Source: an uncultured bacterium
GTDB lineage: Bacteria > Patescibacteriota > Minisyncoccia > Phycocordibacterales > UBA2100
Reading direction: 5' to 3'
Length of the DNA: 26,491 nucleotides
Assembly: GCA_903881205.1 (NCBI GenBank)
Contig: CAIRSC010000089.1
Location: 1 to 26,491, forward strand
The notes under the pieces are model-generated. The model saw only the letters and a program-made list of their open reading frames with translations, was not told where the DNA came from and ran no database searches. This document shows, one piece after another, positions 1 to 17,072 of the stretch (positions are counted from its first letter, which is position 1; each line of letters begins with the position of its first letter). The translations under genes were made by a program, and so were the position numbers.

Positions 1-1275
1 ATCCTTCCGTCGTACCCGGCATCGCGCGAGCTCTGCGCGATGGGAGGCATCGTTTCCAATAATTCCGGCGGCGAACTCACCCTCAAATACGGCAAGACCG
101 CCCACTATGTGAAAGAGTTCGAAGTCGTGCTCGCCGACGGCACAGTCACGACACTCAAACCGCTTTCGGCCGATGAGCTCGGCGACAAAGAGCTCGAGCA
201 GACATTCGAGGGAGAAATCTACCGCAAAATGCATCGTCTGCTGGCAGACAACGAAGCAGAGATCGAAGCGGCGCGGCCGAGTGTGACCAAGAATTCGGCC
301 GGTTATGCGCTCTGGAACGTAATGGATAGAAAAAAAGGCACGTTCGACCTCACTCAGCTCGTCTGCGGAGCCCAGGGCACGCTCGCCATGATCACGAAAG
401 CGAAGGTTGGTCTCGTAAAAACGAGTGAGCATCGCGCCATGCTCGTCGTATTCCTCTCCGACATCAGCATCCTCCCCGAGATCGTACATCGCGTGCTCAA
501 GTTCAAGCCCGAATCATTTGAATCCTACGACGACCAGACCTTCTCGCTTGCCGTCAAATTCATCCCGCAGATCATCGGAAATCTGGGCTTCACCAAAATG
601 CTTTCACTGGGTTTCGCATTCCTGCCGGAAATGTGGATGGCGCTTACCGGCGGTATCCCAAAAATGGTACTGATGGCGGAATTCGCCGAGAACTCCGCCG
701 ACGAAGCGCTCGAACAAGCTCGCCAGGCGCGCGCAGAACTCGAAGGGCTCGCGGTGCGCACCAAGATCGCGCGCAGTGAGGCGCAAACGGCAAAATACTG
801 GACCATCCGCCGCGAGAGCTTCCGTTTATTGCGGCAAAATATGAAGGGGCTCTATGCCGCTCCCTTTATCGACGACATTGTGGTACACCCCGACGACTAT
901 CCGCGATTTTTGCCGGAGCTTGATGCGCTCATCCGTGGACATCGTTTTATATATACCATCGCAGGGCACATCGGCGACGGCAACTTCCATATCATTCCGC
1001 TGGAGAATATGTCGGATCCCGAGGCGCGCGCCGAGATCACCGAACTGATGCCGAAGGTCTTTTCGTTGGTCGCAAAATACAAGGGTTCGATCACGGGAGA
1101 GCATAACGACGGCATCATCCGTACGCCGTATCTCGGAATCATGTTCAGCGAGAAGATGTTGAAACTCTTTGCTGAAGTGAAGAATATTTTCGATCCAAAA
1201 CACATCTTCAATCCGGGCAAGAAAACGGGCGGCACGATTGCCGACATCCGCCGCAGTATGATACGTCACTCCTGA
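1..1275 (+). CDS. FAD-binding oxidoreductase (GlcD/D-lactate dehydrogenase-like FAD-linked oxidase), 5' end outside the window
   Basis: Frame is open from base 1 (ILPSYPASRELCAMGG...). Motifs CGAQGTL, GHIGDGNFH, GSITGEHNDG and NPGK are typical of FAD-linked oxidases. Confidence 0.85.
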   Translation: MLPSYPASRELCAMGGIVSNNSGGELTLKYGKTAHYVKEFEVVLADGTVTTLKPLSADELGDKELEQTFEGEIYRKMHRLLADNEAEIEAARPSVTKNSAGYALWNVMDRKKGTFDLTQLVCGAQGTLAMITKAKVGLVKTSEHRAMLVVFLSDISILPEIVHRVLKFKPESFESYDDQTFSLAVKFIPQIIGNLGFTKMLSLGFAFLPEMWMALTGGIPKMVLMAEFAENSADEALEQARQARAELEGLAVRTKIARSEAQTAKYWTIRRESFRLLRQNMKGLYAAPFIDDIVVHPDDYPRFLPELDALIRGHRFIYTIAGHIGDGNFHIIPLENMSDPEARAEITELMPKVFSLVAKYKGSITGEHNDGIIRTPYLGIMFSEKMLKLFAEVKNIFDPKHIFNPGKKTGGTIADIRRSMIRHS

Positions 1276-1277
1276 GT

Positions 1278-2330
1278 ATGAAGATGCGACACATCGCCTA
1301 CATCACCACCGCACTCACCGCATTGTTGCTGCCCGCGATCGCAAGTGCTCATGAGGTATACGTGCTTCCGCCCGATGTCGTCGCGCGCGACCTCACCATG
1401 CCCGGGCTCCCGGTTCTCAACATTTTTCACGATCATACGGCATCATTCTTCTTTTGGATGTTCATCACGGTATGGGCCGTCATGACAGTACTCTCGATCT
1501 CTCTGTCAAAGCCGGTCGAACGATATCTCTCGCCCGTACTTCGGCCGCTTAAGAGATATGCGCCGCTTGCGGCACGACTCACACTTGGGACCGCGATCTT
1601 CGCATCGGGATATATGGCTGCCCTCTTCGGGCCGGAGCTGCCGCTTACTGCGTTCGTGTCGCCCGAATTCATTCCGATACTGAAACTTATATTAATGGTC
1701 CTCGGCGTCATGGTTGCGGTCGGACTGTTCACACGAGCGGCCGCTGTCGCACTGATGATCGTATTTGCCTCTTCGCTCCCCCATTATGGGACGTATATGC
1801 TTACCTATGCCAATTATCTCGGTGAAATGTTCGTGACCCTTGTCGTCGGCAATACATCGTTGGCGCTCGATCGATATGTTCACCATCGATATCCGCGCGT
1901 CTTTCATGCGATGTTTCAGTGGTGTGAGGATCGCGCATTTCTCATCTTGCGAGTAATGTTCGGAATATCCCTTATTTTCGCGTCCGTGTATGCGAAGCTT
2001 CTGCATGCACAGCTCGCGCTCGATACCGTGACGCGTTACGGGCTTGATCATGTCTTTCCGTTCCAGGCCCCCTTCATTGTGCTTGGCGCCTTCGCCATCG
2101 AGGTACTGCTCGGAATGTTTTTTGTATTTGGTATTGAAATACGATTCGCATCGCTGTTCCTCCTTTTCTGGCTCTCATTATCTCTCCTCTACTTCGGAGA
2201 AGCGGTCTGGCCGCATATTATTCTTGCCGGTGTTGCGATTGCCTTATTCATGCACGGATATGACCGGTACACGATTGAATTAGGTTATCTGCGCCGCAAA
2301 GGAAGACGTGCCAAAGAACCGATCTTCTGA
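1278..2330 (+). CDS. DoxX-family multi-pass membrane protein (two DoxX-like repeats)
   Basis: 350-aa hydrophobic ORF with two similar segments (LMVLGVMVAVGLFTRAAA / IEVLLGMFFVFGIEIRFAS). Confidence 0.65.
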   Translation: MKMRHIAYITTALTALLLPAIASAHEVYVLPPDVVARDLTMPGLPVLNIFHDHTASFFFWMFITVWAVMTVLSISLSKPVERYLSPVLRPLKRYAPLAARLTLGTAIFASGYMAALFGPELPLTAFVSPEFIPILKLILMVLGVMVAVGLFTRAAAVALMIVFASSLPHYGTYMLTYANYLGEMFVTLVVGNTSLALDRYVHHRYPRVFHAMFQWCEDRAFLILRVMFGISLIFASVYAKLLHAQLALDTVTRYGLDHVFPFQAPFIVLGAFAIEVLLGMFFVFGIEIRFASLFLLFWLSLSLLYFGEAVWPHIILAGVAIALFMHGYDRYTIELGYLRRKGRRAKEPIF

Positions 2331-2334
2331 TCTG

Positions 2335-2853
2335 TTATTTCTTGCGCGACACAAACGCGACGAATACAAACAATGCGAAGACTGAGAGTGCCATCCACGG
2401 GATGGTGACGAAACCGAATTCAAATACAGAACGGACCGCACAATCCCCTGCGGCATCACACGGGATAAGTGATCCTGCAGGCAGCATCTGCAGAAGGTGC
2501 TGGTAGAGCGCAACAGCGCCGCCGAATATCGAGAGTGCGAGCACATAGTCGGCGATCTCGGAGACGTCGGTATTCTTTATGATCGCAATGAACGAAATGA
2601 TGACGATCGGATACATGAATATGCGCTGCCACCAGCACAACACGCACGGATTGAGTAGGCCAAGATACTGGATCAAGAGCGTGCCCGCCACCGATGCGGC
2701 GGAGAGAAGGAATATGATTATGCGGGCGTTGGATCGGATCAACACGAGAGCGCTACTGCGACGCGCTGGCATGAAAATCGTCACAATACCGAGCACCAAT
2801 GCGACGTTGAGAAGCACCGTCCCGATTGCCATGAGCGTAATGAGTGTAGGCAT
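2335..2853 (-). CDS. dsbB: Disulfide bond formation protein DsbB family
   Basis: PCVLCWWQRIFMYP motif, a second Cys pair (PCDAAGDC), 4-5 TM helices, adjacent to a DsbA gene. Confidence 0.9.
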   Translation of the reverse strand: MPTLITLMAIGTVLLNVALVLGIVTIFMPARRSSALVLIRSNARIIIFLLSAASVAGTLLIQYLGLLNPCVLCWWQRIFMYPIVIISFIAIIKNTDVSEIADYVLALSIFGGAVALYQHLLQMLPAGSLIPCDAAGDCAVRSVFEFGFVTIPWMALSVFALFVFVAFVSRKK

Positions 2854-2877
2854 AGCGTTATATGTGCCTCGGGAGGC

Positions 2878-4038: not shown

Positions 4039-5337
4039 ATGCAAAAGCCCTCGAAACCCTCGGCCGTAGAACCCGCACCACGGGCAAGGCTCTCGACCGA
4101 CCCGTATAAGGGCGTCCGCGACTTCTATCCGCCCGATCAGTTCATTCAGCGCTACCTCTACGAACACATGGAGCGTGTGTGCGAACTCTTCGGCTACGAG
4201 GAGTACAACGCGAGCGTACTCGAACCGACCGACCTCTACCGCTCGAAGACATCCGAAGAGATCGTCAACGAACAGACATACACCTTCCGCGACCGCGCGG
4301 ATCGCGAGGTGACGCTTCGCCCCGAAATGACTCCGTCGTTCGCCCGCATGATCGCCGGACGGTCGCGCGATATCCCGATGCCGGCACGCTGGTACTCCAT
4401 ACAAAATTTCTTCCGCTACGAACAAGTACGCAAAGGGCGCGAACGCGAATTCTGGCAGCTCAATGCGGATATCGTCGGAGTCGCGGGCATCGAGTCCGAT
4501 GTAGAGATCATCGCGATGTCGCACGCGATCATGCGCGCACTCGGCGCCGAAGAGCGCGACTTTGAGATCCGCGTGTCCGACCGCCGCATCCTCGACACCA
4601 TCTACGACACGGTCGATGTGCCGGCCGCAGTGCGCCCCGACGTCACCCGCCTCCTCGACAAACGCGACAAAATCGAGAACTTCCGAGAACAGCTGCTCGG
4701 ATTCCTCGGCAACGATGAGGACAAGGTCGCCGCTCTACTCGATCAGATCGAACGCACCACCTCGACCGCGTATCTCGAAGAGCTTCGTGTGCAACTCGCG
4801 AATATGGGGGTCAACAACATGATCGTCGACACCAAGATCACCCGCGGCTTCGACTATTACACCGGCATGGTGTTCGAAGTATTTGACACGTCTCCCGAGA
4901 ACAAGCGCTCTCTTTTCGGTGGTGGTCGCTACGACAATCTGCTCGCACTCTTCGGTGGAGACCCGATGCCGGCGGTCGGCTTCGCCATGGGCGATGTAAC
5001 TGCTCGAGACTTTCTTGAAGCGCACAATCTCTTGCCTGCATATGCACCGGCAACTGAACTCATGATCTGCATCGTCGAACCCGAAGCTACATCGCACGCG
5101 ATACGCCTCGCTCAAGATCTGCGCCGCGAAGACGTCACGGTCGCTATCAATTTCTCCGGTAAGCGCATCGGCGACCAGATCCGCCATGCCGACAAAATGA
5201 AAATCCCGTTTGTCATTGCCGTCGGCGCCAAAGAACGCGATTCCGGCCGCTACACGGTCAAGAATCTTTCGACGGGCAAAGAGCTCGAGCTCACTGCCGA
5301 CCGCATATCAGAACACCTTTTCAGTTCGCTCGGTTAA
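4039..5337 (+). CDS. hisS: Histidine--tRNA ligase
   Basis: KGVRDF, LRPEMT, WYSIQNFFRYE, REFWQ, RGFDYYTG and GGGRYD motifs plus a C-terminal anticodon-binding domain. Confidence 0.97.
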   Translation: MQKPSKPSAVEPAPRARLSTDPYKGVRDFYPPDQFIQRYLYEHMERVCELFGYEEYNASVLEPTDLYRSKTSEEIVNEQTYTFRDRADREVTLRPEMTPSFARMIAGRSRDIPMPARWYSIQNFFRYEQVRKGREREFWQLNADIVGVAGIESDVEIIAMSHAIMRALGAEERDFEIRVSDRRILDTIYDTVDVPAAVRPDVTRLLDKRDKIENFREQLLGFLGNDEDKVAALLDQIERTTSTAYLEELRVQLANMGVNNMIVDTKITRGFDYYTGMVFEVFDTSPENKRSLFGGGRYDNLLALFGGDPMPAVGFAMGDVTARDFLEAHNLLPAYAPATELMICIVEPEATSHAIRLAQDLRREDVTVAINFSGKRIGDQIRHADKMKIPFVIAVGAKERDSGRYTVKNLSTGKELELTADRISEHLFSSLG

Positions 5338-5630
5338 CCCGCTCTAAGTTTTTTGGCTGGCATTATGCAGTACGTATATATTCTGCAAAGCTCGGCTGAC
5401 GACAACCTCTATGTCGGATGTACTTCTGATCTGCGCAAACGACTGCTTCTGCATAATGCGGGAAAGGTACAGGCAACCAAAAATCGCAGACCAATGAAAG
5501 TGATATACTACGAGGCCTTAATGAATAAGAAAGATGCGTTTGAGCGCGAAAAGTTCTTGAAGACCGGCTGGGGCAGGACGTACATAAGACGAGTTATGAA
5601 AAATCATTTTAGCCAAAAAATTTAGGCGGG
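5338..5630. mobile_element. GIY-YIG cassette bounded by ~20-bp imperfect inverted repeats
   Basis: cccgctctaagttttttggct (5338-5358) versus agccaaaaaatttaggcggg (5611-5630): 19 matches, 1 mismatch, 1 indel. The cassette is AT-richer than its flanks. Confidence 0.55.
5365..5625 (+). CDS. Small GIY-YIG nuclease family protein
   Basis: YVYIL...LYVGCTSDLRKRL..HN and AFEREKFLK.GWGR signature. Confidence 0.9.
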   Translation: MQYVYILQSSADDNLYVGCTSDLRKRLLLHNAGKVQATKNRRPMKVIYYEALMNKKDAFEREKFLKTGWGRTYIRRVMKNHFSQKI

Positions 5631-5633
5631 TAT

Positions 5634-6209
5634 ATGCGGGTCGTTACCTTCGACATAGAGACCGCGAACTGGCTTGCGGATACGGGTTCGAATGACCCGG
5701 CATCGCTCACGATCGCGATCGTCTGCGCGCACGATTCCGAGACAGACGAATATACGAGCTATCTTGAACACGAGCTGCCCAAGATGTGGAACATGCTGGA
5801 GCGCACTGATGTGCTTGTGGGCTACAATTCCGATCATTTTGATGTGCCGCTTTTGAACAAATATTATCCCGGCGATCTGACCAAAATAAAGAGTCTCGAC
5901 ATTATGAAAGAGGTCCAGGCGGTGCTGGGTCGCCGGCTGCGGCTCGACGCGATCGCGGAAGGCACGCTTGGCGTCAAGAAAAGCGGCAACGGCGGACAGT
6001 CGATTGTGTGGTGGCGCAACGGCGAGATCGATAAGGTGCGCCAGTATTGCCTCAAGGATGTAGAGATCACAAAGCGAATTTTTGATTATGCGCTCGAACA
6101 CGGTGGTGTGAGGTATCGGGAGCTCGGCAAGACCTACGACGTCAAGCTCGACGTATCAAAATGGCTCAATCCCGCCGGCGGCGCAATGACGTTTACGCTT
6201 GGGCTGTAA
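5634..6209 (+). CDS. RNase H-like 3'-5' exonuclease (DEDD/YprB-like)
   Basis: VTFDIET, VGYNSDHFD, SLD and YCLKDV motifs. Confidence 0.8.
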   Translation: MRVVTFDIETANWLADTGSNDPASLTIAIVCAHDSETDEYTSYLEHELPKMWNMLERTDVLVGYNSDHFDVPLLNKYYPGDLTKIKSLDIMKEVQAVLGRRLRLDAIAEGTLGVKKSGNGGQSIVWWRNGEIDKVRQYCLKDVEITKRIFDYALEHGGVRYRELGKTYDVKLDVSKWLNPAGGAMTFTLGL

Positions 6210-6294
6210 CGCTATTTTGAAAGCTCCCAGATAAGGTCGCTTTCAATGCACTCGAACCAAGGTTCTCGGCCCAAAAATCACTGCGTGTATGTTT

Positions 6295-6391
6295 GTGCAG
6301 AATACTTGCAATAGCTCGAACCAGCGCCGCCGGTGGGGGCGGCGGCGCAAAACCCCCGCAGGAAAACGGCGCGGCGAAGCCGCACCGCTGA
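6295..6391 (+). other. Distal att arm of element 1 encoding the alternative C-terminus of LSR1 (WC-RILAIARTSAAGGGGGAKPPQENGAAKPHR*)
   Basis: In frame with the LSR1 codons TGG TGC across the GTGC core. Stop TGA at 6389-6391. Confidence 0.75.
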
Positions 6392-6463
6392 CAATATCAA
6401 ATTTTTCTTTGGCGGAAAAGGTTCGAGTGCGCGTCTCGCGTACACAATTGTTCTTTACAACAT

Positions 6464-6494
6464 AGAAAGAACCCCTTGCCGAAGCAAGGGGTTC
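6464..6494 (-). terminator. Intrinsic terminator
   Basis: Perfect 11-bp stem gaaccccttgc/gcaaggggttc, a cUUCGg loop on the minus strand followed by TTTCT, downstream of ORF 6612-6836. Confidence 0.7.
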
Positions 6495-6611
6495 AGTAAC
6501 CAACACGAGGAAGGTTCTTATTCGCTCTCTATCCCGTAGGATAGTGAGCATTACCCTTTAAGAGATCCGAAGACCTCAACCTGTGTGTTGTGGTAAGTTC
6601 TTATCCGTCAT

Positions 6612-6836
6612 TTACCGTGACGTTTCCATGGAGACACTCTTGTATCCGAAGATCCGACCGATGAGGTCGGGAAGAATTGCATCGGCGAATGCCGTCAACT
6701 CTTCCTTCGAGATGCCAGTTTCCTTGGCGATATTTCCGAACCGACGCTTTGCTTCGTCGACGCTCGGAAGGCCGTTTTTGCTGGCGTATGTCTTCACCAG
6801 CTCAAGGGCGATTTCGCCTTGGCGTTTGCTATCCAT
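6612..6836 (-). CDS. Small hypothetical protein (cargo of element 1)
   Basis: MDSKRQGEIALELVK... ORF with GAGGAG 6 nt upstream of ATG 6836 and a terminator downstream. Confidence 0.6.
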   Translation of the reverse strand: MDSKRQGEIALELVKTYASKNGLPSVDEAKRRFGNIAKETGISKEELTAFADAILPDLIGRIFGYKSVSMETSR

Positions 6837-7000
6837 GTTTCTCTCCTCAAGGTACTTCATCCACGAAGCCCTCGTGGTAGGGGTCATCAGAGAATCTAAT
6901 GACTCTGTAATTTTACACCCTAAAGTATGAAGTTGTCAAGTGGTTGTGTGGACATCAAAAAATACCCATATTTACCAACGTATTTATTGCAATTGAGCGT

Positions 7001-7287
7001 ATGCCAAAAGAATTTTCTTTTTTCCAATTAACACATGGTTCGAGCCGATGGTTTTCCGGGCTCCTTGGCGGTTTTCGAGTGGTGCGGCTTTGCCGCGCCG
7101 TTTTCCTGCGGGGGTTTTGCGCCGCCGCCCCCACCGGCGGCGCTGGTTCGAGCTATTGCAAGTATTCTGCACCAGTTCGGAAATTGCAAGTCAGAGCTCG
7201 CCGCCGCGCAGGGCGCGGCGGCTCGCGCATAGTGCGGTTTCGGGTCAAAAACAAATTCGATTGGAAAAAAGAAAATTCTTTTGGCAT
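7001..7287. repeat. Composite repeat: 28-bp perfect inverted repeats enclosing an inverted, joined attP and recombinase-gene fragments
   Basis: 7001-7028 and 7260-7287 are perfect IRs. 7030-7056 = rc 8646-8672; 7056-7077 = rc 7451-7472; 7081-7172 = rc 6295-6386 (1 mismatch); 7169-7259 = rc 8682-8772. Confidence 0.95.
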
Positions 7288-9282: not shown

Positions 9283-9354
9283 CCCCTTGTAGCTCAATGG
9301 ATAGAGCAGTCCCGTCCTAAGGGAAAGATGTAGGTTCGATTCCTGCTAAGGGGA
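9283..9354 (+). tRNA. tRNA-Arg(CCT), no encoded CCA
   Basis: CCCCTTG/TAAGGGG acceptor, GCTC/GAGC D stem, loop GTCCTAA, GTAGG-TTCGATT-CCTGC T arm. Confidence 0.9.
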
Positions 9355-10867
9355 CATGACAATTCTGACCACCACCTGACGCCGATGTCAGTGTGAAGAT
9401 TGGCGCTAATTCGACGGTTTTGAATTCCGGATACTGGAACCCGACATTTTGGGGGAAGAAGAGGCTTATCAAAACCCTAAGCTCTCCAGGCTCCAGCGTT
9501 GCCCAACAATGCGGGAATTCTTTTACGAGGCTAATGCCGAACTTTACTGCTGACTCTACTGACTCCTCGGGGCTGATGAGTGCGCTCCTCTGAATTTCCA
9601 GATTCCGCTGCTCTGCTTGCTGCTTCTCACTTTTGCGAGCGTAGTCCTCGTTGGTAATCTTTCTCTCCAGCATCAGCTGCAATAAGGAATCTCTCTCCTC
9701 TTGCAGCTTTTCCATTCTCCTCTCAACTTTCTCTGCAAGACTCAAGCTCTCTTTGTTCTCTTTCTCATGGGCGATGATTATTGCTTCTCCTACTGCGTCC
9801 AACACGTTGGAATCCGGAGTAATGGATTCAAGGAATCTTGTGAAGTCATCTTCCATGTCCGTTTTAGCGATTGCTCTTCTGAGAGGACAACCGAAATTCA
9901 TGCAGCTGTAGTAACCGTACATTTTGCTTCTGCCCTTAGTACGACCTCCCGTCAGGTTTCCTCCGCAGCCACCGCACTTCAGCCCCCTGAGAGGAAAGTC
10001 AGGATTATTCCTACTGCGAGGCTGCTTACGAGATTTGCTGCCCTCCTTGAGAAGCTGCACCTTGAAATACAATTCCTTAGAAATGATGGGCTCATGTCTG
10101 CCTTGTACCGAGATGTTGAATTTTGGTATTTCGATCCAGCCGTAGTGGATTGGGTTCCGTAGGATGTTATATACAAGCTGCTTTCCTACTTTGCGGCCGA
10201 ATCTACTGCGGATATCTCCCATCGCATTAATCTTTTTAGCGATTTCCAGATAGGTCGTTGTGCCTCTTGCGAACTCCTCAAAGCAGAACTTAACGATGGA
10301 CGCTTTTTGAGGATGTGGGGTTATGGTCTTTTTACCGAGTTCATCCTTGCTGTTTTTATAGCCCCAAGGCGCAAGAACAGGCCAATATCCATCGAGGGCT
10401 TTTGCTTTCATGCCAGCGACAGCTCTCTCACCTCGGACATCATTGTCGAACTGAGCGATGACAGCCAGCATTCCCTCCGAGAGTCTTCCGTGAGAAGTGT
10501 TCTCAATCAATTCCGTGGCAGATCTTAGTTCGACCTTACACTCTCGGAGCACTAACTTTATTGCGAAGTGGTCTACTTGATTGCGAGCCAACCTATCGAC
10601 CTTGTAGACGATCAGGTACCCAATTCTCCCTACGTTTTTTATGCAGTGCTTCTGGAGGTTTTGTAGCTCCGTTCTGTCTGCATTCTTCGCTGACTCTCCT
10701 TCTTCACGAAACACCTGCAGAACCTCCCAGCCATTTTTATCCGCGTAGGCTCTGCAATCCTTTTCCTGATTCATGAGGCTGTATCCCCGCACTTGGTCTT
10801 CGGACGAGACACGCACATAGATGATGCAGGTCTTTGGACGCTCAACGCTCTTAATTTGTTTTTTCAT
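9317..10867 (-). CDS. Large serine recombinase LSR2
   Basis: YVRVSS, VDRLARN, zinc ribbon CGGC...YYSC...C and a coiled coil. The C-terminus VPLAGIEPTSFP* is read from the antisense strand of tRNA-Arg. Confidence 0.95.
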   Translation of the reverse strand: MKKQIKSVERPKTCIIYVRVSSEDQVRGYSLMNQEKDCRAYADKNGWEVLQVFREEGESAKNADRTELQNLQKHCIKNVGRIGYLIVYKVDRLARNQVDHFAIKLVLRECKVELRSATELIENTSHGRLSEGMLAVIAQFDNDVRGERAVAGMKAKALDGYWPVLAPWGYKNSKDELGKKTITPHPQKASIVKFCFEEFARGTTTYLEIAKKINAMGDIRSRFGRKVGKQLVYNILRNPIHYGWIEIPKFNISVQGRHEPIISKELYFKVQLLKEGSKSRKQPRSRNNPDFPLRGLKCGGCGGNLTGGRTKGRSKMYGYYSCMNFGCPLRRAIAKTDMEDDFTRFLESITPDSNVLDAVGEAIIIAHEKENKESLSLAEKVERRMEKLQEERDSLLQLMLERKITNEDYARKSEKQQAEQRNLEIQRSALISPEESVESAVKFGISLVKEFPHCWATLEPGELRVLISLFFPQNVGFQYPEFKTVELAPIFTLTSASGGGQNCHVPLAGIEPTSFP

Positions 10868-11207
10868 GGTTTTTATTTTTATTTTCTAAGGTGACGAATG
10901 CTACTTTCACTCCGATTGACTTGAATGCTGCAATTTTTTGGTTGCAGAACATCTTGTACTTATCGAGGTTCTCTGGACGATACACGATGAGGAGATTGAT
11001 TTCTCCCGCACTGTCTTTGGCGTACTGAAGTGCCGCAGGGATTTGCCCCTTCTTCCGCCTCCTCCAGTAACGCTCCCGAAACACCTTCGCAATCTTTAAG
11101 CCGTTTGCTTCCGCATACGCCAGACAATGCTTCTCTTGAGAGAGCAGATCATCGACTGCCCATTTTCCCCAGTAGTCTGTCCGAACGTACACTATTGCTT
11201 TTTTCAT
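10851..11207 (-). CDS. Stand-alone resolvase-like catalytic domain lacking the catalytic Ser
   Basis: MKKAIVYVRTD...Q...CLAYAEANGLKIAKVFRE...LLIVYRPENL. Aligns by eye with the LSR2 N-terminus and overlaps the LSR2 start by 17 nt. Confidence 0.7.
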   Translation of the reverse strand: MKKAIVYVRTDYWGKWAVDDLLSQEKHCLAYAEANGLKIAKVFRERYWRRRKKGQIPAALQYAKDSAGEINLLIVYRPENLDKYKMFCNQKIAAFKSIGVKVAFVTLENKNKNHEKTN

Positions 11208-11497
11208 ACTGTTATTTTCTAATTTAACCTCGTAATTTTTGTCTCTCACGACCGCCGCGCTTTTTCTGGATTCCCAGAACTGGCGGAACGACACCTAGAA
11301 CACCGAAAGTTGGATGGGGTGCTCTTCGCTCTGGCTTCCGTGGTTGCTCTCTGGGGAAACCAGTTTTGGGCTTTCAGCCACACGCTAGACCACCACTGAA
11401 GGTGCGAAACGGCAGGTTGGAGCGACTTATCAACCTCCCGCTGCATTTCTTGCTCTGAAGGTAGAAAGCACCACCCATCTTTTTCCCTTCGTAGAAG

Positions 11498-11534
11498 CTT
11501 CTTTATAAAGAAGTTCTTTATAGAACTTCTTATA
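11498..11534. repeat. AT-rich overlapping palindromes and short direct repeats (origin- or operator-like)
   Basis: 16-bp palindrome at 11498-11513, 10-bp IR at 11508-11517/11522-11531, and ttct(t)tata x3. Confidence 0.7.
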
Positions 11535-11538
11535 ATAA

Positions 11539-11925
11539 TTAGGATCTTTTTGGGTCTTTTCCGAAGCGGTCAATCTTCGCTTTAATGAAGTTTGCGGATT
11601 TTCGCACTTCCGCTGTCAATCTCCTGCCCGGAGTCTTTTTGACAAAGCCGCTTTCGATGATGTTGTCTTTTTCTAATCGTTCAAGCGTCGCTGCTATGTC
11701 CGATTCATTTCCGCCAGAGTACTCAGCAAGCTGTCCAAGCTTATAGAGGCAGTATTGATTGTGGCGCGTCATATTCTCGATTATCGAGAACAAGTGTCTC
11801 TCCAACGGCTCTTTTACGTCGTACTTCTTGCACAGACTGTGCATGATGAGGGAGTACTTTATTTCCTCTTTATCCTCCTGTGGTGGAGGCGGTATATTTT
11901 TAAGGTACTTCTTTGCATGTTCCAT
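11539..11925 (-). CDS. Hypothetical HTH protein, possibly the N-terminal domain of a phage-type replication initiator
   Basis: LGQLAEYSGGNESDIAATLERLEKDNII resembles a winged HTH. It lies directly upstream of the palindromic array. Confidence 0.45.
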   Translation of the reverse strand: MEHAKKYLKNIPPPPQEDKEEIKYSLIMHSLCKKYDVKEPLERHLFSIIENMTRHNQYCLYKLGQLAEYSGGNESDIAATLERLEKDNIIESGFVKKTPGRRLTAEVRKSANFIKAKIDRFGKDPKRS

Positions 11926-11969: not shown

Positions 11970-12158
11970 CTAGGGTGGTTCCTCTTGGTTGGTAGGGCTG
12001 CTTCTTTGTTTGGCCATCACTCTTGCCCAGATTCTTAGTAATTCTGGAGCTAGTAGAAGGCAAAAGTCAGTGATGTGCTGCGCCTCGACTTCGGTGTATT
12101 GATTTTTTTGGCGCAAAATTCTTAAGATTTTTTCACGCTCATCCGATGTGTGCTCCAT
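11970..12158 (-). CDS. Small hypothetical protein
   Basis: 62-aa ORF co-oriented with its neighbours and filling the gap between them. Confidence 0.4.
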   Translation of the reverse strand: MEHTSDEREKILRILRQKNQYTEVEAQHITDFCLLLAPELLRIWARVMAKQRSSPTNQEEPP

Positions 12159-13045: not shown

Positions 13046-13180
13046 ATAGAAAATAGTACAGGCAAAGTGCCAATACGCCACCACCTTTCCTTTCTGCAAT
13101 AGCGAGGTAAGCTTCTAGGACACATACCAAATATCGAAGAGATCTAAACCGTCAGCCTTCCAAAAGCAGGCGGCACGATC

Positions 13181-13308
13181 GCAAATCGTTGACTACAGAA
13201 AACCCGTCATTTAGGGCGTAGTCAACGTTGCAGAGGGAAACTTCTGTAGAGCCGCAAGGCTCCCTAGTGGCGGGCTTTATGTTTGCCCACCACTAATTAC
13301 GAATTAGT
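13181..13308 (+). ncRNA. Candidate structured RNA or leader (unassigned family)
   Basis: Consecutive stems: a 10-bp perfect stem (13187-13196/13218-13227), a GAAA-capped stem (13230-13247), a GCAA-capped stem (13249-13262) and two mutually exclusive 3' hairpins. Confidence 0.5.
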
Positions 13309-14327: not shown

Positions 14328-14540
14328 ATGCAAGAATCAGGCGATGTTCATTCCACGATACAACTGCTGACCATCAAGGAGGTTGCAGGGTTGCTGAAGA
14401 TATCTCAGATGACGGTACGTCGTTTGCAGCAGGGGCGGCATCTCCCGTTCATAAAGGTTGGCGGTAGTGTCCGTTTCGCCAAGAGTGACATTATTCAATA
14501 TCTAAAGAAACAGAGAATTGATTCAATCGATAGGTTTTGA
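14328..14540 (+). CDS. Excisionase-like HTH (MerR/HTH_17) DNA-binding protein
   Basis: LLTIKEVAGLLKISQMTVRRL...LPFIKVGGSVRF...I signature. Confidence 0.85.
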   Translation: MQESGDVHSTIQLLTIKEVAGLLKISQMTVRRLQQGRHLPFIKVGGSVRFAKSDIIQYLKKQRIDSIDRF

Positions 14541-14618
14541 GATTTGCTGGTCGTTGGGCTATTTACTAATTAAATAGTCAAGGAGCAGTACAGGAGCGGC
14601 CAGCAAATCTCAAAACCT
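14532..14618. repeat. 22-bp inverted repeat (21/22) with a nested AT-rich hairpin, between convergent genes
   Basis: aggttttgagatttgctggtcg (14532-14553) and cggccagcaaatctcaaaacct (14597-14618), with inner gctattta/taaatagt. Confidence 0.9.
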
Positions 14619-15068: not shown

Positions 15069-15566
15069 CTATTTCACTCGCGTTACATACCGAATTGGGA
15101 TAAGTTCATTCGTTTCTAAAAACTCGGAGCCCGACTGCGCCTTAATATGGGAATTCCCACCCGAAACTAAGATGTGGTATATAAAGGCGTCTTGGCCATG
15201 CTCCTGAAGGAAACTCAGTTCATTTCTAGAAACATAGATGGGCGACGAGAGAGAACTTGTAGTACTCTTCACCTCAATGTATTTCTCTCTGCCGTCCGTA
15301 AAAAATGACAAGACATCATAGCCTGCACCATCTCCATCTTCAGCGGCAACGTTGCGTACCCTGTCTGCCAAATCTTTTCTTCCGATGGACTCAAAAAAAT
15401 CCTGTTCTATTGCAACTGCAATCTCCTCTCCTCTGTCTCCGGTCAATTTCCTTGACCTATTTATTTCTTCCCAGTTAATCTTCCGTGCCGTTCTATAGAA
15501 TCTTTCAGGAGCAATTATTTCTTTCTGCTGTTGTGGTTCGGAAACATCCCTAACGAAATTGCGCAC
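15069..15566 (-). CDS. DUF3883 (NOV C-terminal) PD-(D/E)xK endonuclease domain protein, possibly N-terminally truncated
   Basis: GDRGEEIA...E...DGAGYDVLSF...KYIEVKST...NE motif. Confidence 0.8.
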   Translation of the reverse strand: MRNFVRDVSEPQQQKEIIAPERFYRTARKINWEEINRSRKLTGDRGEEIAVAIEQDFFESIGRKDLADRVRNVAAEDGDGAGYDVLSFFTDGREKYIEVKSTTSSLSSPIYVSRNELSFLQEHGQDAFIYHILVSGGNSHIKAQSGSEFLETNELIPIRYVTRVK

Positions 15567-15935: not shown

Positions 15936-17072
15936 TTACGCTATTAAATCTCTTATTTTCAATAAATCATGTCCGTCCACTAGCTTTACATTGTTCTTTT
16001 GTGCTAAAGCCTTAGCAGATGGAGTAAAAGTTGAGTTTGTAATTACCCAGCCCTCATTTCCACTGTAGTAGCTAACAGCACCGACAACCTCCTGAACAGC
16101 TTTGTTTCCAACAGTGCCTTGGTATCTTTTGGCTTGGATGACCAAAGTCTTCCCGCTTTTCTTAGCTAACAAATCAGCTCCCTGGTCTCCAGTAGTAGCA
16201 GTACCACTAACATCGTAACCACACTCCTTAAATATTTTTGATAGGTATGTTTCAAATTCAACACCAGAAAGGTCATTTAAGCTGATATCCTTTTTAGGGC
16301 TACCTTTTTGGGCTTCGTGGTATTCTCTAAAAATCTTCTCTAAGACCTTAGGCAAATCTCTATACTGATCTGGTACATTCCATGTATATCCTTTTTTAAA
16401 AAAGTCTTTTAATTTGGCATCACTAATACCGTCAATTACAGCCAGTTTTCTTATACAAGCTTCAATTTCCTTAGATAAAAGAACCCAGCTTTCATCTCCG
16501 TAGTCATCGATGATAGATACCTTTCTCTCTGTAATCTCAAGGAATTTATCTATTATATCTTTCCGGCCATCAAGAAAATGTCTTGCTTCACGCTCAGTCT
16601 TATCTTCGTATTCCTTTTCAGCTTGCTCCTGCCTTATTCTATTTTCCTCTACAATCTCCTTGTATCTCTCTTTAAATTTAGGCAGAAGAGAATTCTTCAA
16701 TTCAATATATTGAAGAGGAATACCCTGTCTCTTTTCCCATACAGGCAACCATTCTCTAGATTTAGGAGCTATGTTTGGAACCCTTTCTCTTATAGCAATT
16801 TCCTTTATACAATCACTCACCTGATTTTCTACATAATGAGGCCAGCTATCCTTTCTAAGGTTTTTTAGATGGTCTTCAATTAAAATCTGGTTTCTTTCCT
16901 CAAGCGATTTGGTCTTATCTAAATCTGCAACAGGGTATTTGTTTTCTAAATCCAATTGTGCCTTACGCGTAACAAAGTGGTTTTTACTAGATTCCTGTAT
17001 AGAGTTAATTACTGAGACTATACCCCAAATAATGAATCCAATGATGACCAGAGGTATGGCAAGTTCCTCCAT
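15936..17072 (-). CDS. Mrr-family (type IV-like) restriction endonuclease with N-terminal TM helix
   Basis: C-terminal LSGVEFE...GY.V...TGDQGADL...VIQAKRY...V..V...ITNSTFT..A...A....V.LVDG. AT-rich. Confidence 0.85.
   Translation of the reverse strand: MEELAIPLVIIGFIIWGIVSVINSIQESSKNHFVTRKAQLDLENKYPVADLDKTKSLEERNQILIEDHLKNLRKDSWPHYVENQVSDCIKEIAIRERVPNIAPKSREWLPVWEKRQGIPLQYIELKNSLLPKFKERYKEIVEENRIRQEQAEKEYEDKTEREARHFLDGRKDIIDKFLEITERKVSIIDDYGDESWVLLSKEIEACIRKLAVIDGISDAKLKDFFKKGYTWNVPDQYRDLPKVLEKIFREYHEAQKGSPKKDISLNDLSGVEFETYLSKIFKECGYDVSGTATTGDQGADLLAKKSGKTLVIQAKRYQGTVGNKAVQEVVGAVSYYSGNEGWVITNSTFTPSAKALAQKNNVKLVDGHDLLKIRDLIA

Follow-up and report, generated by a model that had tools for sequence, protein, structure and literature searches.

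The E-helix of serine recombinases makes up most of the dimer interface and also the interface at which the tetramer rotates. The Tn3, γδ and Sin resolvases are regulated through catalytic-domain contacts outside the E-helix. Some large serine recombinases (LSRs) work with a second co-encoded protein, as seen in the CcrA/CcrB pair of SCCmec and in XisF, which acts with XisH and XisI. Among the transposases, Tn5 Inh and the P-element KP repressor are inhibitors that consist of truncated transposase. The verified RDFs of large serine integrases have unrelated, scavenged folds and bind at the junction of DBD2 and the coiled coil (PMC12286644, PMC11795197).

The window analyzed here, i.e. the whole stretch of 26,491 nt from an uncultured member of the Patescibacteria, carries an integrated island in which the gene for an LSR is preceded by a small gene encoding a relative of the LSR catalytic domain. 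Compared with enzymes of the serine recombinase catalytic domain type (PF00239), the small protein and its family are without the nucleophilic Ser, the equivalents of D67, R68 and R71 of γδ resolvase, the E-helix and any DNA-binding domain, and they occur as stand-alone proteins of 100–124 aa.

A catalytic core without its serine

The LSR in question, LSR2 (9317..10867, minus strand), is an intact 516-aa protein with Pfam Resolvase, Recombinase and Zn-ribbon domains, in which the motifs YVRVSS and DRLAR are both present and which matches a PHROG integrase at 1.8e-86. Its last codons are the antisense reading of the 3' part of tRNA-Arg(CCT) (9283..9355, plus strand; called by ARAGORN and Rfam), which is the integration site of the island. 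The small ORF (10851..11207, minus strand) starts with an ATG at 11207 and encodes 118 aa. It was characterized as a Ser-less paralog of the serine-recombinase catalytic core from the reading frame and its sequence, Pfam, alignments, AlphaFold2, fold matches, dN/dS and pI.

A preliminary description of this DNA had held that the ORF resembles the N-terminus of LSR2, and BLASTP bears this out, with 32% identity over 82 aa to LSR2 residues 12–93 (E 1e-9); no similarity to the neighboring LSR1 was detected by BLASTP. Both of the motif substitutions it had pointed out are visible in the alignment. The nucleophile motif reads IVYVRTDYWG as against IIYVRVSSEDQ in LSR2, with the nucleophilic Ser of Y-x-R-x-S replaced by Asp11 (YVRTD). 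In the second motif region, LIVYRPENLDKYK stands opposite LIVYKVDRLARNQ of LSR2, and the DRLxR motif is lost, with ENLDK in place of DRLAR. The Asp/Arg cluster, i.e. the equivalents of D67, R68 and R71 of γδ resolvase, is missing as well. The sole Pfam match is to the Resolvase N-terminal domain (PF00239), at E 7e-4 and 20.1 bits against a gathering score of 23.3, and spans profile positions 3–104 of 145. Pfam detected no DNA-binding domain, neither a helix-turn-helix (HTH) nor the recombinase and zinc ribbon domains, in agreement with the earlier claim.

The secondary structure elements follow the order β1-αA-β2-αB-β3-αD-β4, with a short Lys/Asn-rich tail. An AlphaFold2 model from a 20-sequence alignment (pLDDT 87.7, pTM 0.80) shows the strand-helix order of the resolvase core, and each of the top Foldseek matches of the model, like each VIA match with Z of at least 10.6, is the catalytic domain of a serine recombinase; among them are ISC1926 TnpA, a pneumococcal resolvase, the TP901-1, Bxb1 and phiC31 proteins and the γδ, Tn3 and Sin resolvases. 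The best match has Z 15.0 (6dgc and 3guv) and the γδ and Tn3 resolvases have Z 12; over this range (Z 12–15), the rmsd to serine-recombinase cores is 2–3 Å over ~100 residues. At the sequence level, the profile of the small-protein family matches ISC1926 TnpA at 1e-7, and other structural matches are found by sequence too. As modeled, the fold of the 118-aa protein is that of the serine-recombinase catalytic core, the same α/β core as in γδ and Tn3 resolvases, TP901-1 integrase (3BVP) and ISC1926 TnpA (6DGC). Y7 and R9 correspond to Y6 and R8 of γδ resolvase, and the QE..C..YA helix and the VFRE strand are shared with PF00239 domains.

The likeness stops short of the E-helix. Model residues 2–109 align to residues 1–97 of γδ resolvase, and likewise only to residues 1–97 of Tn3 resolvase; after β4 there is just a low-confidence 13-residue tail rich in Lys and Asn. 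This bears on the proposal in the preliminary description that the protein acts through mixed oligomers with LSR2. That it is a recombinase-core paralog stands, but the helix on which such oligomers would depend is missing, both in the structural alignment and in the truncated Pfam match. The canonical mixed-dimer route is thus unlikely, and any binding would more likely involve another part of the core.

A constrained family and its junction with the LSR gene

A word-indexed search yielded nine clusters of related proteins, 45–100% identical and all of 112–124 aa. When 1.8 billion representative proteins were searched exhaustively with a profile and no length limit, the family grew to ~20 representatives or clusters of 100–124 aa from Patescibacteria metagenomes, with Adlerbacteria among the sources; the few annotated lengths above this range result from starts called further upstream. 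The strong matches of this search included neither fusions nor longer forms, and below E of about 1e-10 they give way to short proteins of other kinds and to the N-termini of ordinary LSRs. PF00239 is matched by each of the 20 family members at E ≤ 0.01 (best 1.8e-8). None has Ser at the nucleophile position, which is taken by D, E, N, P or F, and the Asp/Arg-cluster columns, conserved in LSRs, are lost throughout. The "dead" motif YVRTDxWG is itself conserved in the family. Neither NCBIfam nor PHROGs has a family that covers the 118-aa protein, and the NCBI label of two members, "recombinase family protein", is misleading.

The alignment separates two sets of conserved residues. Y7, R9, L21, Q24, E25, C28, Y31, A32, F43 and G99 are structural positions common to the family and LSRs, whereas T10, W13, G14, A17, D20, K85 and K110 are conserved specifically in the family; W13, Q24, C28 and G99 are invariant among 16 core members. 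On the remodeled face that was formerly the active site, T10, D11, W13, G14, W48 and a basic loop (49–53) are conserved.

In a tree of catalytic cores, all family members fall into a single clade (SH-aLRT 97) with a long stem, far from the clade of LSR2. It can therefore be deduced that the family is old and that the small gene is no recent copy of LSR2. Between the window and its relative L005, the small gene has pS 0.48, pN 0.11 and dN/dS 0.16, similar to the dN/dS of 0.15 for the adjacent LSR; with synonymous change this plentiful, the constraint acts on the protein and not on the DNA. By these sequence measures, the family is maintained by selection over a long time. Three members (P0005, P0007 and P0160; 70–90% identity) probably lie on one JGI contig of 577,468 bases, which suggests that a single genome can hold several related islands, each with its own dead paralog.

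The DNA of the window still hints at where the small gene came from. The start region of LSR2 (10854-10885) and that of the small ORF (11194-11225) are 72% alike over 32 nt, the likeness consisting of an A-rich leader and ATGAAAAAA, and a second repeat of 17 nt is found at 10707-10723 and 11077-11093, spaced 370 nt apart. Judging from their sequence and position, both repeats are faint remnants, at the DNA level, of the tandem duplication from which the gene pair arose and in which the translation-start region would have been included. Such traces, as well as the rarity of the family, are what one would expect if the ORF were a leftover 5' copy of an LSR gene drifting toward loss. We consider this very improbable, as the ~20 divergent clusters have a uniform length and no internal stops, the members form a single clade on a long stem apart from LSR2, the fold is predicted with confidence and dN/dS is low. 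Neutral decay had been named at the outset as the pattern that would speak against a function, and purifying selection was found instead. The other part of the preliminary description's account, namely that the protein is a paralog of the LSR catalytic domain that has lost catalysis, holds up, with Ser, Asp/Arg cluster and E-helix absent from an otherwise recognizable core.

The small ORF ends at 10851 and LSR2 starts at 10867, which confirms the 17-nt overlap reported earlier (10851..10867, minus strand). The LSR2 ATG lies within the His-Glu codons (CATGAA) at the tail of the small ORF, where the sequence is rich in A and unstructured. Contexts L005 and L006 share this CATGAA junction and the relation of the two frames with the window; the overlap is 17 nt in the window, 11 nt in L005 and 23 nt in L006. 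In all three of the readable contexts of the family proper, on which this count rests, an LSR2-type gene lies directly downstream of the family gene (78% identity in L005, 42% in L006). The claim that the small ORF is genetically coupled to the LSR is upheld by this shared overlap, and the homologs are conserved beside LSRs, which is the opposite of what a mere remnant had been predicted to show. The LSR gene of L005 ends inside tRNA-Ile, as that of LSR2 does inside tRNA-Arg; the L006 contig is cut before the 3' end of its LSR.

Could the overlap itself be the point? The upstream ORF might serve as a translational device that brings ribosomes to the LSR2 start, with the peptide mattering little. 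The LSR2 ATG precedes the small-ORF stop by 17 nt and lacks a Shine-Dalgarno sequence, the junction is conserved, and many related LSRs have some small ORF overlapping or abutting their start. We nevertheless regard this as improbable, since the whole 118-aa fold is under purifying selection and its surface residues are conserved across the deep family. The LSR2 start also lies in unstructured sequence where no unmasking is needed, and no significant RNA structure was found around the small-ORF and LSR2 starts. Promoter and terminator scans around both starts were uninformative. The intergenic leader upstream of the small ORF (11208..11538, minus strand; 330 nt) contains blocks conserved with L005, including ~45 nt directly before the ATG; no sigma-70-like promoter was called in it, and a blastn-short comparison with the island ends found no attP-like copy upstream of the small ORF. 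A programmed frameshift joining the small ORF to LSR2 was also considered and rejected: in the window a +1 slip could take place on a run of A, but L005 has not preserved this run.

Ser-less paralogs and other candidate cofactors in LSR islands

Short Ser-less resolvase-domain proteins are also encoded near LSRs outside the family proper. In L045 (G455:C25), two such ORFs lie in tandem (1882-2400 and 2436-2867, minus strand; 172 and 143 aa) directly upstream of an LSR (213-1736, minus strand) whose 3' end runs into tRNA-Ile (180-253). Their motifs are R-T-F in the 172-aa protein and R-I-A in the 143-aa protein, their lineages are distinct from the window family, and in the 172-aa protein the E-helix region is still present (Pfam profile positions 1–141 of 145). 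L051 (G051:C14) encodes a 152-aa paralog (6821-7279; R-T-A/DRLSR) one gene from the LSR and on its strand, and L050 (G286:C3) one of 163 aa (6104-6595; R-A-G/KRF), ~2.4 kb upstream of the LSR and also on its strand, with replication-like genes between them. L050 and L051 come from congeneric genomes, where related LSR islands occupy the same chromosomal spot beside a ychF-like GTPase gene; the two islands have different Ser-less short resolvase paralogs. Among the profile matches, Ser loss clearly goes with short length as far as the sequences tell: Ser is kept in 59 of the 60 proteins of at least 300 aa and missing in 46 of the 80 under 200 aa, although the absolute fractions are biased by a query profile built from Ser-less proteins. 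In two other Patescibacteria genomes, the LSR genes of L046 (G596:C1, 3283-4911) and L047 (G494:C13, 2032-3569) are split by frameshifts into an N-terminal piece, in which Ser is retained, and the rest of the gene. They are ordinary pseudogenes and stand apart from the Ser-less family.

The genomic setting and composition of these proteins leave room for a function that does not involve the LSR at all. The 118-aa protein could be a functional island protein, e.g. a basic nucleic-acid-binding or regulatory protein, which reuses the α/β fold and is merely co-transcribed with the integrase. Its pI is 9.8, with 24 Lys/Arg against 12 Asp/Glu, the basic loop is conserved, the residues that are conserved specifically in the family are not the ones conserved in LSRs, and the L050 paralog is separated from its LSR as described above. 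We think this unlikely, though less so than the explanations weighed above. The overlap with the LSR start codon has been kept down to 42% identity, all contexts of the family and its analogues sit in LSR islands on the LSR strand, and Pfam did not detect a DNA-binding motif in the protein.

The family is rare. LSR N-termini occur in 6–21% of Patescibacteria representative genomes, depending on the E-value cut-off, but no further family members, only LSR N-termini and a few analogues, came up in ~1,100 genome searches at the levels of order, phylum and class (some genomes were drawn twice, and the unpublished G250 enters only the tally of one sample). A scan of genome contigs gave only an ordinary LSR (L001), and a scan of viral contigs gave nothing. 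In L008, the LSR aligns to LSR2 without gaps at 51% identity, shares its N-terminal extension and runs into tRNA-Glu at its end, but an unrelated 52-aa ORF is found upstream of it and no dead paralog. The dead paralog is thus an add-on of a sub-clade and not a core requirement, and from these sequence comparisons the small protein is accessory and dispensable for the LSR clade as a whole.

Upstream of the leader, a 128-aa neighbor (11539..11925, minus strand) is weakly similar to replication initiators and winged HTH proteins (phrog_2880 at 9e-4), and its position is conserved in L005 (ORF 5245-5697). Next to it, a 62-aa ORF (11970..12158, minus strand) is a candidate LSR cofactor and in this respect a rival to the 118-aa protein. 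It belongs to a family of small proteins (50–110 aa, with the pattern roughly L..E(R)..K..IL....(S/T).EE....D.L..LA.EL and no Pfam match) that usually lie directly upstream of LSRs of this type and often abut their start, with relatives upstream of LSRs in L006 (70-405), L008 (1154-1312), L031 (1163-1321), L009, L010 and L023. Going by this recurrence, the 62-aa family could be the usual cofactor or regulator of tRNA-targeting LSRs in the Patescibacteria. A further candidate, for excision control, is a 70-aa HTH_17 gene in the same island (14328-14540, plus strand), which encodes an excisionase-type helix-turn-helix protein and is followed by a 22-nt inverted repeat, 95% complementary, at 14532-14618. 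In the same genome, context L004 (contig C101) has a 62-aa HTH_17-like ORF on the minus strand that ends 5 nt before the start of the third LSR of this 0.8-Mb genome, filling the slot taken by the dead paralog at LSR2.

The island also has cargo. A NOV_C-domain protein is encoded at 15069-15566, and the product of 15936-17072 is 378 aa long and contains an Mrr-type restriction-endonuclease domain (both minus strand); from their domains, these look like defense cargo. A LOOT RNA (Rfam RF03000, 65 bits) is found inside the island at 13141-13262 (plus strand), upstream of the cargo genes.

Proposed role and comparison with known systems

We propose, with a probability of roughly 55%, that the 118-aa protein regulates LSR2 as a non-catalytic partner, acting by direct protein contact and setting the timing or direction of island recombination. 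A domesticated, non-catalytic copy of the catalytic core, which is produced from the LSR2 transcript, would touch LSR2 directly as a regulatory subunit; we infer both the binding and its site. Docking might take place via the outer face of the core or via the remodeled former active-site face, rather than in a canonical mixed dimer. On the remodeled face, the contacts could be provided by the two conserved Trp residues (W13 and W48) and the basic loop. Against a partnership with LSR2, the E-helix is absent, the LSR of L008 works without such a protein, and the island holds two other cofactor candidates, the 62-aa ORF and the HTH_17 gene.

If the protein is a partner of LSR2, its exact part could take several forms. 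By analogy with known systems, it may be an excision or directionality cofactor, which we put first, if well below even chances, because the gene fills a xis-like slot just ahead of the integrase gene. Since the folds of known RDFs are diverse and scavenged, any small protein of an island can evolve into one, and an RDF role is possible whatever the fold; against it, the verified RDFs bind the DBD2/coiled-coil junction and not the catalytic domain. A brake present in excess over the LSR is another possible role, to which we give slightly less weight. With genes that overlap in this way, the two proteins would always be expressed together, the small one probably in excess, and this fits a brake better than a switchable RDF. 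The remaining probability goes to other LSR-linked roles.

A broader idea can be put forward only tentatively, and we think it unlikely as it stands. Ser-less copies consisting of just the catalytic core, to judge by their recurrence in LSR islands, might be recurrent trans-acting regulatory subunits of tRNA-targeting LSRs in ultra-small bacteria, whose target would be the catalytic module and not the DBD2/coiled-coil junction. Such subunits may read the C-terminal tail that is swapped by integration in LSRs whose attP lies inside their own gene.

If this idea is true, serine integrases would be gated or reversed in a way that is new. Genome engineering makes wide use of large serine integrases, and the control of their direction and activity is an active problem. 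The characterized cofactors bind one hotspot far from the catalytic domain; a cofactor derived from the catalytic core would indicate a second control surface and would offer a simple, portable design for inhibitors or switches. It would also help to explain how the compact tRNA-targeting islands of Patescibacteria regulate themselves. Even if the protein makes no contact with the LSR, it would neatly exemplify how the recombinase of a mobile element can give rise to a pseudoenzyme.

Our literature search found no published account of a serine recombinase whose partner is a Ser-less resolvase domain, and nothing relevant on dominant-negative serine recombinases or on LSRs in Patescibacteria or CPR. 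Accessory proteins of site-specific recombinases are known as such; what would be new here is that such a protein is built from the enzyme's own catalytic core. Among the known systems, the RDFs of LSRs (phiC31 gp3, Bxb1 gp47, SPbeta SprB and A118 gp44) are likewise small proteins encoded on the same element as the LSR, and the gene of the 118-aa protein is placed in an RDF-like position, as xis before int. However, none of the known RDFs found in the literature search is described as derived from a recombinase catalytic domain. The 118-aa protein is like Tn5 Inh and KP in being recombinase-derived, without catalysis or DNA binding, encoded with the active enzyme and expected in excess. Those inhibitors, on the other hand, come from the gene of the active enzyme itself, as shortened products in which the multimerization region is retained, whereas the 118-aa protein is the product of a separate, anciently diverged gene and has no canonical multimerization helix. 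In the CcrA/CcrB pair, the second protein is a paralog, as in our case, but both proteins are full-length and catalytically competent. Finally, XisH and XisI are products of small upstream genes that work with their LSR, XisF, as the 118-aa protein is proposed to do with LSR2, but they are not resolvase-like, and the 118-aa protein is.
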